From Methanomicrobia archaeon (GTDB lineage: Archaea > Halobacteriota > Syntropharchaeia > Alkanophagales > Methanospirareceae), in the NCBI GenBank assembly GCA_011049045.1, contig DSCO01000022.1:1260-65259 (forward strand): a DNA stretch of 64,000 nt, read 5' to 3'. A program made the translations under genes and the position numbers. The notes under the pieces are model-generated. The model did no database searches and was not told the DNA's origin. It saw only the letters and a program-made list of their open reading frames with translations. Positions 55,094 to 58,773 of the stretch are shown here, in pieces; position 1 is the stretch's first letter; each line of letters opens with the position of its first letter.

Positions 55094-55399
55094 ATGGAAA
55101 GAGAACCGTCAGAAGGTAAGCTTTCAGAAGACTTTTACGTCCTCATTCATCCCATACGTTACCGAATCGTCAAATTGCTTGCCGATAAGCCGCTGCACGT
55201 AAATGCAATTGCCCTCGCGATGGGTATTGAAAGGCGGCACATTACCTACCATTTACGGATCCTGGAGGACTCTGGATTCATAACGAGCAAGTACGGAGTC
55301 TCGGAAGAGAAAAAATTGAGGGGAAAGGCACTAAGGGTGTGTACGCTTACTGACAAGGTCGCGGAAGTGAAAGCGGCGTTGAAAAAGGATCTGGAGTAG
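55094..55399 (+). CDS. ArsR-family wHTH regulator, paralog 2
   Basis: IHPIRYRIVKLLADKPLHVNAIALAMGIERRHITYHLRILEDSGFI. Confidence 0.7.
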   Translation: MEREPSEGKLSEDFYVLIHPIRYRIVKLLADKPLHVNAIALAMGIERRHITYHLRILEDSGFITSKYGVSEEKKLRGKALRVCTLTDKVAEVKAALKKDLE

Positions 55400-55476
55400 G
55401 ATCTAATTGCCTTCGTCTGGGGGCGGAGCCAGCTAGCTTCCGAGTTTAAGTTCATCTCGATCCTATTCGTACTTAT

Positions 55477-56268
55477 ATGGTGCCGTACGTATTGCGCGCA
55501 CCGCAGGGGCTGTTTACCGTGCCTTCAGTGAGCTCACATTCCGAGGAAGCGAAGCCGCCCGCGCATCGCGGACGCAGCGGGGCAGCACAGTCAAGAGCAC
55601 GCATATCCACCGGTCTGCCGCGGCTCGATCCGATCTTGGGCGGCTTCAAAGCGGGCACCGTGAGCCTGATTGAGGGCAACCATCCCCTCATCTCCGAGGC
55701 GCTCTCGCTGCTCGCCATCAATGCGGTCACGCACTTGGAAAAATCGGTCGTGTACGTGGACGGCGGTAATTCCATTGATCCTTACCTCATTGCGACGCTC
55801 GCCAAACGGTCAGGGGTAAAACCAGCTCAGGTGCTACAGCAGATCCTGGTTGCACGGGCGTTCACCGCGTATCAACTGGACACCATCATCTCTGATCGGC
55901 TCGAAGCGGTGCTCGATCAGGCAGAGCTAGGCCTGCTGATCGTTGCTCGCATTACAGATCTCTTCCTGGATCGGGCGGTGGCAGAGAAGGAGGCACTCGC
56001 CATGTTGAGCCGATGCGTTGCGCGCATCGAAACGAGCACTCACGATCGAGCGCTGATCACCGTGGTCACGAAGCGGCGACGAACGCCTTCATCGCGCGCG
56101 CTGGCGTTCGATGAGATCCTCGCGAAGCTCCCGGAAGACCGGATCAGCGTAGAACGCAGGAGGAAGGGCGTCAGGCTGCACCAGCACACGCGCGATATCA
56201 TCATGGACTACGTGCCGCTTTCGATCTATCAAACGACCCTGGATGAGTTCATAGGCGGTGGTACGTGA
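55477..56268 (+). CDS. RadA/RadB-like RecA-superfamily protein with degenerate Walker A and lost catalytic Glu (predicted inactive)
   Basis: TGLPRLDPILGGFKAGTVSLIEG then NHPLIS in place of GxxGxGKT; VVYVDGGNS in place of vYIDTE; QILVARAFTAYQ conserved. Confidence 0.6.
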   Translation: MVPYVLRAPQGLFTVPSVSSHSEEAKPPAHRGRSGAAQSRARISTGLPRLDPILGGFKAGTVSLIEGNHPLISEALSLLAINAVTHLEKSVVYVDGGNSIDPYLIATLAKRSGVKPAQVLQQILVARAFTAYQLDTIISDRLEAVLDQAELGLLIVARITDLFLDRAVAEKEALAMLSRCVARIETSTHDRALITVVTKRRRTPSSRALAFDEILAKLPEDRISVERRRKGVRLHQHTRDIIMDYVPLSIYQTTLDEFIGGGT

Positions 56269-56548
56269 GATGGGTAGGACGGTCCGCACCTATCGGACGG
56301 TGCTGGAGGAGTTGATCGCCGACTGGGAACGGTTTCGGAAAGCGCTGCGGAAAGAGGATCGGGAAGCGTTCGATCGCCTGATGGCGAAAGCGCGCACACA
56401 TGCCAGTGCGGCCAGCTACGACGCACGCGTTGACCCCAGCGAATCGCTCTTCATGTCTATTCTGGTGGAGCTGGAACGCGAGCTCGAGGCGCTCAGAGCG
56501 AAGGTCGCGGAGCTTGAGCAGCAGCAGAAGGAGGAGCAAGAGCAGTGA
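56258..56548 (+). CDS. small coiled-coil protein
   Basis: 96 aa, overlapping start/stop with both neighbours (operon). Confidence 0.5.
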   Translation: MVREMGRTVRTYRTVLEELIADWERFRKALRKEDREAFDRLMAKARTHASAASYDARVDPSESLFMSILVELERELEALRAKVAELEQQQKEEQEQ

Positions 56549-58773
56549 ACGGCTGGGTACTCGATGTCGGTGCGGATTATGAGCAGAACTCGATCATGCT
56601 CTGGCTGAAGCAGGAGAGCGGTTTGGTCGAAGCGGTGGAATGCCCCTTCTTACCCTCGCTTTATGTGCACGCGGCGCCGGCGAACTTGCAGGTGCTGGAA
56701 GAGACCTTCGAGGACGAGCCGTTCGTCAATGCATGGGGGTACGAGGAGAAACGTCTGTGGCCGGGCGAGCCTGCGCAGGAGGTATTGCGAATCACGCTCG
56801 CGGAGTACCGGATGCTTATGAAGCTCGCGCGCGAGATCGACGAGATGGGTGATTACTCGCTCTACGAGCTCTTCAACGTGGATCTCAGCATCCCCACGGC
56901 GTTTATGCTGGAGAAGGGCATCGTCCCGATGGCGCAGATCGGACTCAAGAAACAATCAGAGTTCGAGCTGCTCGAAGATCTCACCGCGATTGATTATCCG
57001 GTACCAGAGCTCCGAAGCGTCAGCCTGGAGGGCAAGGTCAACGCTACAAGCACGCAGCACATGGCTGCATGTCCAATATCTGAGCTCTTGCTGGACGGCC
57101 AGCCGGTAGCGGGTCGCACTGAGCGGGATTTGCTCAGCGGACTCATTGAAGCCATCACTGCTAGGGATCCGGACATCATTTACACCCCTAACGGCGACGC
57201 GTTCCTCATCCCGTACCTCATGGAGCGTGCACGGGTCAACGAACTCGATGACTTCTGCCTCGGCCGCGGACGCGACCTTCGGCCGGTGGGGCAGCCGAAG
57301 TCCTATTTCAGCTACGGGCGCGTGATCTACCGGCCACCGAAATGCCGCTTCAACGGCCGGATACACATCGATCAGAGCAGCTCGTTCCTCTTCCGCGAGG
57401 GTGGCCTTCCCGGCCTGATCGAGCTCGCACGATTATCCCGGATTCCGCTGCAATCGGTATCCCGTGTGACACCCGGCACGGTGATCACCGCGATGCAGAT
57501 CGCAGAAGCGTCGCAGGAGAACGTCCTCATCCGCTGGAAGAAGAACGTGCCCGAGGCGTTTAAAGACGCGCAAACGCTCTTCCTCGCTGATCGCGGCGGC
57601 ATGATTTACGATCCCCGCGTGGGCGTCCATGAAGACGTGGTGGAGATCGACTTCACCTCGCTCTATCCAAGCATCATGGTCAAGCATAACATCTCGCCTG
57701 AGACCGTGCTCTGCTCGTGCTGCCCGGATAGCAGCCACCGCGTCCCGATCATTGATTACCCGATCTGCGAGCAGCGGGTGGGGCTGATCCCGCGCGTCCT
57801 GGAGCCGCTGATCGCGCGCAGGAGTGAATACAAGCGACGCGTGAAAGCGAAAAAATGGCAGGATAACTGGGCGATCTATGAGGCACGCAAGAACGTGCTG
57901 AAATGGATCCTCGTTACCTGTTTCGGCTATACCGGTTACAGAAATGCACGGTTCGGACGGATCGAATGCCACGAAGCGATCAATGCGTACGGCAGAGAGC
58001 TTTTGCTCCAGACTGCGCAGATCGCCGAAGAGCGCGGCTACGAGGTGCTCCACGGGATCATCGATTCGCTCTGGTTGAAGGGCGCCGCGCAGAATGCACG
58101 CGACCACGAGCTATTGCGGCAAGCGATCGAGCACGAAACGGGCATGCCGCTGGAGCTCGAAGGCGTGTACCGCTGGGTCGTCTTTCTGGCCCGGAAGTCC
58201 CAGAGCACGGGCGCGCTGAACCGCTATTACGGGCTCTTCGCGGACGGCACGATGAAGATCCGCGGCCTGGAGCTGAGGCGTAGCGATACGCCGCAACTGA
58301 TCAGGAACGCGCAACTGGATCTGCTGAAGGTGATGGCCCGAGCTGATAACGTCGCGGCGCTGTACGAGCTCATGCCTGACGTGATCGGGGTGCTCCGGAG
58401 GTACGCTGATCGCATCGTGAACGGCGAGTGCGCGTTGGAGGAGCTGGTCTTTACGCCCGTGGTCTCACGCGAGCTCGAGTTCTATTCGCACCTGACCAAC
58501 AGCGCCGCCTGCCTGCTCCAGTTGAAGCGGCGTGGACGTGCCGTGCACCCGGGCGAGCGGATACAGTACATCGTGACTGATGCCGGCTCAGCGCGCATCG
58601 CGAAGAAGGTAAAGGCCTGGGCGCTGGTTGACGGCACGGAACAGTATGATAAGAAGCGCTACGTCCGGCATTTGCTCAGGGCAGCCGAAAGCATCCTCTC
58701 ACCGTTTGGCTATACGGAGCGCAAACTGGCAGAGATCATTAAACCTACAAGACAATTGACGCTTCCGATCTAA
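56545..58773 (+). CDS. polB: family B DNA polymerase paralog with degenerate exonuclease and partly degenerate polymerase motifs
   Basis: archaeal PolB N-term (VLDVGADYE, FLPSLYVHA); motif A DFTSLYPSIM intact; motif B KWILVTCFGYTGY; motif C HGIIDSLW (first Asp of DTD lost); exo I AIDYP, exo II PNGDAFLIPYL (catalytic Asp lost). Confidence 0.8.
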   Translation: MNGWVLDVGADYEQNSIMLWLKQESGLVEAVECPFLPSLYVHAAPANLQVLEETFEDEPFVNAWGYEEKRLWPGEPAQEVLRITLAEYRMLMKLAREIDEMGDYSLYELFNVDLSIPTAFMLEKGIVPMAQIGLKKQSEFELLEDLTAIDYPVPELRSVSLEGKVNATSTQHMAACPISELLLDGQPVAGRTERDLLSGLIEAITARDPDIIYTPNGDAFLIPYLMERARVNELDDFCLGRGRDLRPVGQPKSYFSYGRVIYRPPKCRFNGRIHIDQSSSFLFREGGLPGLIELARLSRIPLQSVSRVTPGTVITAMQIAEASQENVLIRWKKNVPEAFKDAQTLFLADRGGMIYDPRVGVHEDVVEIDFTSLYPSIMVKHNISPETVLCSCCPDSSHRVPIIDYPICEQRVGLIPRVLEPLIARRSEYKRRVKAKKWQDNWAIYEARKNVLKWILVTCFGYTGYRNARFGRIECHEAINAYGRELLLQTAQIAEERGYEVLHGIIDSLWLKGAAQNARDHELLRQAIEHETGMPLELEGVYRWVVFLARKSQSTGALNRYYGLFADGTMKIRGLELRRSDTPQLIRNAQLDLLKVMARADNVAALYELMPDVIGVLRRYADRIVNGECALEELVFTPVVSRELEFYSHLTNSAACLLQLKRRGRAVHPGERIQYIVTDAGSARIAKKVKAWALVDGTEQYDKKRYVRHLLRAAESILSPFGYTERKLAEIIKPTRQLTLPI

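Follow-up and report, generated by a model that had tools for sequence, protein, structure and literature searches.

A probable member of the archaeal iRadA-PPB2-PolB2 operon family in a Methanophagales (ANME-1c-related) genome

Introduction

Genes of the archaeal B-family DNA polymerase group PolB2 were reported by Makarova, Krupovic and Koonin in 2014 to lie in predicted operons together with genes of inactivated RadA-family proteins and of a small α-helical protein, arCOG07300, and a complex of the products was proposed (PMC4104785). In 2025 Timinskas et al. named the two partners iRadA and PPB2, catalogued the gene orders, including iRadA-PPB2-PolB2, described the assembly as the 'PolB2 mutasome' and modelled in silico a PolB2:iRadA:PPB2(3) heteropentamer (PMC11791011). 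According to this work PPB2 is defined by an N-terminal MGRT arm with arginines at positions 3 and 9, and PolB2 by a D(K/R) loop motif following a Rad51-oligomerisation-like β-α motif that binds iRadA; PCNA-binding motifs are commoner on iRadA than on PolB2 and rarely found on both (PMC11791011). Here we describe such a trio, encoded at 55519-58773 on the plus strand of a 64,000-nt stretch of contig DSCO01000022.1. The term window refers to this whole stretch, and window coordinates are used throughout. The host is a Methanophagales (ANME-1c-related) archaeon, with Candidatus Methanospirareceae (Methanophagales/ANME-1) as nearest relative bearing a name.

PolB2 was considered inactive in the published view up to 2014 (PMC4104785). 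Feng et al. characterized in 2022 the Sulfolobus PolB2, termed Dpo2, as a robust polymerase without detectable exonuclease activity and defined the HxxxD signature of its motif C. The enzyme is an efficient extender of mismatched and lesion-opposed termini, approximately equals the replicase Dpo1 in nucleotide incorporation and, as cited within the same report, is required for damage-induced mutagenesis (PMC8764526).

We consider it highly probable that the locus in the window is an ordinary member of this known archaeal operon with the gene order iRadA-PPB2-PolB2; the confidence applies to the best explanation as a whole, i.e. a standard PolB2 operon coding for an active, proofreading-free polymerase and its adaptor partners. 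The trio is already known, having been described in 2013-2014 and modelled in 2025, and nothing essential differs at this locus. An earlier inspection of the nucleotide letters and translated open reading frames (ORFs), termed below the sequence-only reading, was unsure whether the pairing of a PolB with an inactivated RecA-like partner had been reported; the pairing holds, and the suspected novelty does not (PMC4104785, PMC11791011). The benefit is primarily one of annotation. The proteins, deposited as HDS44901.1, HDS44902.1 and HDS44903.1 in a 'Methanomicrobia archaeon' metagenome-assembled genome and all labelled hypothetical, can now receive the names iRadA, PPB2 and PolB2, the iRadA start can be corrected, and the full module, with the putative PCNA-binding motif sitting on iRadA, is now placed in ANME-1c-type archaea. 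No entry for HDS44901-3 was found in the accessible portion of the supplementary material of PMC11791011.

Layout and gene starts of the operon

Family membership by sequence motifs, the fold of iRadA, conservation of the operon, the gene starts and a lineage-specific helix-turn-helix (HTH) neighbour are documented below for the following three genes and their surroundings:

55519..56268, plus strand: iRadA, likely GTG start, 249 aa (the longest ORF runs from ATG 55477, 263 aa)
56270..56548, plus strand: PPB2, 92 aa, ATG 1 nt past the iRadA stop
56545..58773, plus strand: PolB2, 742 aa, GTG start, NCBIfam NF004418/NF004416

The ORF list of the window contains the four plus-strand ORFs in question, those of the trio and that of an upstream ArsR-type gene, as the sequence-only reading had placed them. 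Nearly all of the residues it listed were likewise confirmed by alignments to solved structures; its residue list is essentially correct because motif-by-motif alignments to Pyrococcus furiosus RadA and Pyrococcus abyssi PolB agree with it.

The borders between the three genes required correction. The iRadA frame ends with TGA at 56266-56268 and ATG GGT AGG ACG, coding for M-G-R-T, opens at 56270. The start at GTG 56258 taken earlier, which resulted in a 96-aa ORF overlapping both neighbouring genes, merely prepends four residues to the MGRT sequence of PPB2. PPB2 is called from the ATG, with 92 aa, by the gene callers in three independent assemblies, 58 distinct PPB2 homologs from the surveyed loci (see below) have an MG(R/K)T N-terminus, and a phmmer search with PPB2 yielded 908 related 50%-identity clusters, most of the best relatives being aligned from their own residue 1. 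As all three lines place the start at ATG 56270, PPB2 does not overlap iRadA, from which it is separated by a 1-nt spacer, and overlaps PolB2 alone. The PPB2 stop and the PolB2 GTG start share 4 nt (GTGA) and GGAGG is found 10 nt upstream of the PolB2 start, an arrangement which fits translational coupling of PPB2 and PolB2. Judged from the spacer and the overlap, the three genes form a tightly and, by all appearances, translationally coupled unit.

The start of iRadA is most likely GTG 55519, giving a product of 249 aa, as indicated by DNA comparison with the loci L006 and L007 of close relatives. The ATG at window position 55477 is replaced by ATA in L006 and by AGC in L007, and the 42 nt after it contain a 1-nt deletion in L006, yet the DNA of this segment is almost identical in the window, L006 and L007. 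At the position of GTG 55519 more distant relatives carry an ATG and read M-P-S.

The N-terminus of PPB2, MGRTVRTYR, carries the arginines at positions 3 and 9, and a single-sequence model predicts three helices (3-25, 28-47 and 56-91). Precomputed matches to PF26485 (DUF8156) are recorded for the PPB2 gene of the window and its orthologs. A Pfam scan of the 96-aa version lists no PF26485, a model possibly missing in that copy of Pfam.

The RadA-like component iRadA

The product of 55477-56268 matches the Pfam Rad51/RadA family (E 6.7e-8), and among the NCBIfam models that of RadA (E 7.8e-9) performs better than that of RadB (E 2.7e-5). The RadB equivalog TIGR02237 scores 24.2 vs a cut-off of 172.4, and NF006861 scores 21.3 vs 278. 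Of the previous label 'RadA/RadB-like' the RadA/Rad51 part is therefore retained and the RadB part dropped. Archaeal RadB is, like iRadA, a short RadA paralog devoid of the N-terminal helix-hairpin-helix domain; however, it constitutes a distinct orthologous group and keeps the Walker motifs, whereas the P-loop is deleted in iRadA of the window.

The alignment of iRadA does not start before residue 111 of full-length PfRad51, which implies that the N-terminal domain is absent. In the superposition of sequences with P. furiosus RadA the P-loop GSGKT falls into a 4-residue gap (EGNHPL----ISEAL), IDTE is converted into VDGG and the Walker B segment LLIVDS into LLIVAR, with Asp replaced by Ala. 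The loss of the Walker A lysine and the change of IDTE to VDGG had been noticed before, and the alignment traces the former to a deletion of the P-loop. The sequence VDGGNS is kept across the iRadA family alignment. Based on these replacements the ATPase of iRadA looks dead.

The fold is nevertheless that of the recombinase core. An AlphaFold2 model of iRadA has a mean pLDDT (predicted local distance difference test) of 83 with a core above 90 and disordered residues 1-38, and a Foldseek search with this model gave the ATPase cores of RAD51, RadA and DMC1 as best matches (probability 1.00, template modelling score normalized to the target up to 0.78). Four residues before the C-terminal end, at residues 252-259 in the numbering of the 263-aa ORF, iRadA contains a box resembling the PCNA-interacting protein (PIP) motif, QTTLDEFI, which includes a short helix at 255-258 in the AlphaFold2 model. 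Q252 and L255 do not vary among 19 iRadA homologs, and the QTTLDEF box varies little or not at all. Of the surveyed loci with full-length PolB2, 21 carry a strict PIP pattern on iRadA alone, 2 carry it on iRadA as well as PolB2 and 0 on PolB2 alone, a distribution which matches the published one (PMC11791011).

A distant iRadA subgroup (P0069, P0079, P0082 and P0086) carries NQS(V/L)LEDY in place of YQTTLDEF (alignment A1, columns 270-308). Its members are extended at the C-terminus by ~40 aa, and the extension terminates with another PIP-like box, Q(V/M/F)EIS(V/A/L)F(C/I).

The polymerase PolB2

The protein encoded at 56545-58773 matches DNA_pol_B with an E value of 1.3e-35. Among the NCBIfam models NF004418 and NF004416 rank first, matching over the full length with E values of ~1e-142, and the next-best model reaches 190 bits. 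Alignment to P. abyssi PolB revealed the following state of the motifs:

Motif A: DFRSLYPS in P. abyssi PolB, D369FTSLYPS in PolB2, kept
Motif B: KILANSYYG in P. abyssi PolB, K453WILVTCFGY in PolB2, Lys kept, NS changed to VT
Motif C: YIDTD in P. abyssi PolB, H503GIID507 in PolB2, second Asp kept, first Asp and Tyr replaced
Exo II: Asp in P. abyssi PolB, Leu in PolB2, aligned with high posterior probability

The exo III region falls into a deletion of ~45 residues between aligned blocks. For exo I no DxE was found in any register of PolB2; the profile register places L146 and A148 at these positions, in a weak alignment of uncertain register. The sequence-only reading, according to which motif A is kept, motifs B and C are altered and exo I and exo II are lost, is borne out in each of these points, and a shift of register does not restore the DxE of exo I.

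In a family alignment of 25 PolB2 sequences (A3), D369, F370, S372, Y374 and P375 of motif A, K453, W454, L456, V457, T458, F460, G461 and Y462 of motif B and H503, G504, I505 and D507 of motif C are all invariant. Since the 25 family members show no variation at the altered motif positions, the changes are fixed under selection and not decaying. The loop motif D349-R350-G351-G352 is also invariant and is preceded, 7 residues upstream of D349, by an FxxA-like sequence F339-K-D-A342 of the Rad51 oligomerisation type; the spacing from D349-R350 to IID resembles that of S. islandicus PolB2 (253-DK-254 to 401-IID-403, PMC11791011). The C-terminus of PolB2, QLTLPI, is a truncated PIP-like sequence in which the aromatic pair is absent.

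Two further features of the PolB2 family deserve mention. A CxCC...C cluster formed by C390, C392, C393 and C408 (encoded at ~57712-57768) is invariant in 25/25 PolB2 sequences. C393 and C408 align with both cysteines of the P. abyssi segment NCKEYD...HRFCKD, a pair which corresponds to a disulfide in Thermococcales PolB; the two extra cysteines could be part of a metal site. Moreover, the PolB2 genes of two 'Methanobacteriota archaeon' chromosomes (L044:9039-11717 and L045:8961-11648) contain an insertion of ~160 aa inside motif B (LVT/C....HN/CFGY, slashes denoting the boundaries) whose boundaries resemble those of a mini-intein. An intein at motif B of a polymerase once termed inactive may be taken as a further hint that this site matters.

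Conservation of the gene neighbourhood

Scanning of the GTDB species genomes with the iRadA alignment resulted in 222 confirmed places, 80 of which were kept. iRadA is encoded beside PPB2 and PolB2 in the window and its close relatives, and the three genes are adjacent in the order iRadA-PPB2-PolB2 in 43 of the 80 kept loci. The trio, whose conservation in other genomes the sequence-only reading had left to such a survey, is clearly a conserved neighbourhood. In the remaining kept loci genes are interspersed or contigs end, and at least 13 have iRadA-PPB2 without PolB2 within 8 kb. A two-gene iRadA-PPB2 variant was already noted in 2014 for haloarchaea (PMC4104785). The loci of our survey with the iRadA-PPB2 pair and no PolB2 within 8 kb downstream mostly belong to Thermoplasmata (L048, L050, L052, L056, L059, L060, L062, L065, L068, L071, L074, L078, L081 and L083). 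In a 77%-identical relative (L087:1-6419) a gene for a protein of >1164 aa with AAA_23/AAA_27 matches precedes iRadA-PPB2, and a reverse-strand gene follows PPB2 in place of PolB2, ~400 nt before the contig end.

Upstream region and regulation

The region upstream of the trio contains the following features:

55094..55399, plus strand: ArsR-type winged-helix gene, 101 aa, HTH_20 and HTH_5 matches
55052..55108, plus strand: promoter and leader of the ArsR-type gene, the leader being repeated at 50688-50719
55434..55518, plus strand: conserved non-coding block 5' of iRadA, near-identity in the window, L006 and L007
50692..51605, plus strand: two ArsR-type paralogs, a full copy from ~50704 and a truncated copy at 51381-51605 (tblastn, blastp)

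The 55094 protein matches HTH_20 with 37.6 bits (cut-off 27, E 2e-9) and HTH_5 with 33.9 bits (cut-off 22, E 3e-8), and reaches 43.4 with NF033788, below the cut-off of 55. Metal sites of the ArsR/SmtB family follow the patterns of a CxC in helix α3 or of Asp/His/His/Glu in helix α5. No such site was detected in the 101-aa sequence, which has C83 as its only cysteine, lacks a CxC ahead of the recognition helix and carries no histidine in the C-terminal helix. The protein is an ArsR-fold regulator without sign of a metal sensor. Its promoter consists of a TATA-like TTCTATATAC at 55052-55061 and a leader and start region GTGATTGGGGCAGAAATATGG... at 55077-55108. The leader GTGATTGGGGCA..ATATGG recurs at 50688-50719 with 88% identity (repeat D5), and the TATA-like TTCTATATAC is also conserved, together with the leader, upstream of the HTH gene of L006. 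The conserved promoter ascribed earlier to the ArsR-type gene is thereby substantiated.

The block at 55434-55518 in front of iRadA is a candidate promoter and 5' leader of this gene. Its 85 nt are nearly identical in the window, in L006 and in L007, which lacks the HTH gene, and not conserved in more distant relatives. The block comprises TTTAAGTTCA at 55445-55454, CTTATATG at 55472-55479, a palindrome TGCGCGCA at 55493-55500 and a Shine-Dalgarno-like GCAGGGG at 55503-55509. Within the window the palindrome TGCGCGCA and the GAGTTTAAGTTCA TATA-like box occur at chance frequency and do not mark a regulon. A search of 54000-60000 against Rfam matched no RNA family, and a scan for sigma-70 promoters and intrinsic terminators, uninformative for an archaeon, was not used.

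The sequence-only reading regarded the operon as headed by the ArsR-type gene. A four-gene, ArsR-controlled operon with the 55094 HTH protein as dedicated regulator and first gene would agree with the location of the latter on the same strand, 77 nt upstream of ATG 55477 and 119 nt upstream of GTG 55519, and with the situation in L006, where iRadA is directly preceded by a gene of the same small HTH family. However, among seven close lineages with 75-100% identical iRadA the HTH gene is found upstream of the operon in the window and L006 only; at 75-88% iRadA identity this position is occupied by a MatE transporter gene in L007, L088 and L089 and by other genes in L086 and L087. An ANME-1-THS relative has an ornithine cyclodeaminase gene upstream of the operon. 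A Pfam survey of the gene directly upstream of iRadA in 66 loci gave a mixed set of neighbours (M24 peptidases, amidohydrolases, MFS, Fic, MatE and further families), without a recurrent HTH family among the 25 most frequent Pfam families. In the more distant loci no upstream HTH gene was detected. Even the two HTH neighbours are different paralogs: that of L006 is 48% identical to the 55094 copy and 81% identical to the 50.7-kb copy of the window. Neither the leader palindrome nor the TATA-like box is enriched elsewhere in the window, and the iRadA upstream block is kept in L007 without any HTH gene. Control by the 55094 gene as first gene of the operon is, on this basis, unlikely. Since the block is conserved in the HTH-less L007 and the HTH neighbour is inconstant, the three-gene operon is most likely equipped with a promoter and leader of its own, and the ArsR-type gene, one of a locally amplified family, is probably transcribed separately and an occasional neighbour of the operon.

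As a variant of this idea, ArsR-fold paralogs might have been placed upstream of the PolB2 operon twice in the ANME-1c-related lineage and serve as a lineage-specific regulator of translesion synthesis, with 55434-55518 including the TGCGCGCA palindrome as operator. We consider this quite improbable; if true, an ArsR-fold regulator would take over the role held by Orc1-2 in Sulfolobales and by LexA in bacteria.

The ArsR-type family is locally amplified, the full and truncated paralogs being located 4-5 kb upstream (50692-51288 and 51381-51605) and linked by a 206-nt direct repeat D1 (50782-50987 / 51360-51565, 85% identity). The stretch 49132-50403 codes for a protein of 423 aa which contains an HTH_5 domain.

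Catalytic state and proposed complex

The sequence-only reading classified the polymerase as 'catalytically degenerate' and suggested a complex that is non-catalytic or specialised. That both enzymes are dead and that the trio acts in replication or repair solely as a structural or regulatory complex was suggested by the lack of the first Asp and the Tyr of motif C, the change of NS to VT in motif B, the missing exonuclease motifs and the deleted P-loop of iRadA, and it corresponds to the published view until 2014 (PMC4104785). The resemblance to the 'inactivated archaeal PolB' family noted in this context is correct insofar as the PolB2 group once carried that name. However, motif C retains its metal-binding second Asp, motif A its Asp and motif B its Lys, all of them invariant in the family, and the strict conservation of the modified active site argues for retained catalysis. 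Moreover, Sulfolobus Dpo2 with the same HxxxD signature incorporates nucleotides at a level comparable to that of Dpo1 and is needed for damage-induced mutagenesis (PMC8764526). An entirely non-catalytic complex is therefore rather improbable, and the term 'non-catalytic' is probably wrong for the polymerase domain, while the exonuclease of PolB2 looks dead. In analogy to Dpo2, PolB2 of the window is most likely an active, proofreading-free polymerase of the B family.

Relative to Dpo2 of S. islandicus and S. solfataricus (PMC8764526, PMC7390963), the window protein shares the affiliation to the PolB2 group, the IID/HxxxD motif C and the missing exonuclease residues. Dpo2 is crenarchaeal and the smallest PolB2 known, whereas the window protein with its 742 aa is much larger and retains more of the scaffold of the exonuclease domain. 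Dpo2 misfolds when produced in E. coli. Measurements on Dpo2 cover its activity, the lack of proofreading, the extender behaviour and the induction by damage. From published work on these relatives, polymerase activity, lack of exonuclease activity, a 1:1:3 complex, PCNA binding and damage inducibility would be expected for the window system as well.

On the basis of these analogies a working scheme can be outlined. PolB2 would extend mismatched or lesion-opposed primer ends in translesion synthesis, and iRadA, incapable of ATP binding and hydrolysis, would act as an adaptor which docks on the FxxA-like β-α motif F339KDA342 of PolB2 just before D349-R350. Through its C-terminal QTTLDEFI box iRadA might link the complex with PCNA. 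PPB2, a coiled-coil trimer according to published predictions, would clamp PolB2 and iRadA together and insert its MGRT arm between them, close to the DNA. The three genes would be transcribed from their own conserved upstream block and not from the promoter of the ArsR-type gene.

Among the described systems the PolB2 mutasome (PMC4104785, PMC11791011) corresponds to the window locus in its three components and in one of its reported gene orders. Common features are the HxxxD motif C, the lost exonuclease motifs, the D(K/R) loop and the preceding FxxA-like motif of PolB2, the absence of the N-terminal domain and ATPase residues and the presence of the PIP box in iRadA, and the MGRT arm with R3 and R9 and the three predicted helices of PPB2. 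As differences, the operon of the window has no orc1/cdc6, SRAP or DUF72 neighbour within 10 kb, and an ArsR-type gene adjoins it in the window lineage and one relative. The Pol V mutasome of E. coli (UmuD'2C-RecA-ATP) is an analogous combination of a translesion polymerase, a RecA-family subunit and a small oligomeric accessory protein (PMC11791011). However, Pol V contains a Y-family polymerase and the active recombinase RecA with ATP, the window system a B-family polymerase and a dedicated ATPase-dead paralog, and the two are not homologous. Eukaryotic Pol ζ (Rev3) is, like PolB2, a B-family, proofreading-free extender of mismatched and lesion termini, an analogy drawn in PMC8764526, but its accessory subunits are Rev7 and Pol31/Pol32, and it has no RecA-like partner.

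Several points weigh against the assignment as a standard, active PolB2 operon. The curated cut-offs of the two best polymerase models are not reached (NF004418, 476.5 bits vs 692; NF004416, 471.1 vs 516). These scores are consistent with a divergent lineage and do not on their own signal a different family. PolB2 biochemistry stems solely from the much smaller Dpo2 of Sulfolobales. The heteropentamer is a prediction whose experimental test was still awaited in 2026 (PMC13324097), and a sigma-factor-like fold of PPB2 was not reproduced in the single-sequence model. Finally, orc1/cdc6, a reported archaeal neighbour, was not found within 10 kb of the operon, for which reason damage-inducible regulation is unsupported at this locus. 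PolB2-PPB2-iRadA is an interesting part of archaeal DNA-damage tolerance, and the window locus adds one more ordinary example from an uncultured methane-oxidising lineage.

Genomic context

Synteny with the closest relatives is confined to 55094-58806 of the window in L006 and to 55423-58792 in L007, and the G+C content drops to 0.47-0.53 on both sides of the operon. At 61022-61489 on the plus strand a 155-aa ORF matches a terminase large subunit in its C-terminal nuclease part only (phrog_38, profile positions 625-713 of 760, E 9.5e-16); small unannotated ORFs surround it at 59700-63100, and an integrase gene is located just past the window end in the matching assembly. Together they look like a degraded provirus beside the operon. 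The description of the surroundings as a 'mosaic accessory region' in the sequence-only reading was a fair one in view of the non-syntenic flanks, the G+C drop, the terminase fragment and the integrase.

That the polymerase module itself belongs to a mobile element in an accessory island, such as a provirus, a casposon-like element or a plasmid replication module, is suggested by precisely these four features but is very improbable, because in relatives the trio resides at 75-88% identity in ordinary chromosomal contexts (among them MatE, aminotransferase and HSP70), neither Cas1 nor terminal protein or capsid genes adjoin the operon, and a search for an att-like repeat of the nearby tRNA-Glu gave none, a second copy of its 3' end (47080-47103) being absent within the window. 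A casposon or protein-primed PolB identity was rejected in view of the HxxxD motif and of NF004418/NF004416, models of the PolB2 group, as best NCBIfam matches; a provirus replication module was rejected as the operon is chromosomal in relatives. The mobile-element remnants look like separate insertions which are neighbours of the operon and not its carriers.

Downstream of the operon, at 58854-59117 on the minus strand and convergent with the end of PolB2, there is a gene for a protein of 87 aa which contains a single C2H2 zinc finger (weak Pfam match). The gene is present in all three assemblies of the window lineage and in neither L006 nor L007. In the low-GC stretch upstream of the operon a 42-nt direct repeat (TCTT..TTATGTACA.CTCACAGAGCTGCTTGCGGA) with 86% identity, at 51332-51373 and 53780-53821, joins two intergenic-looking spots 2.4 kb apart.

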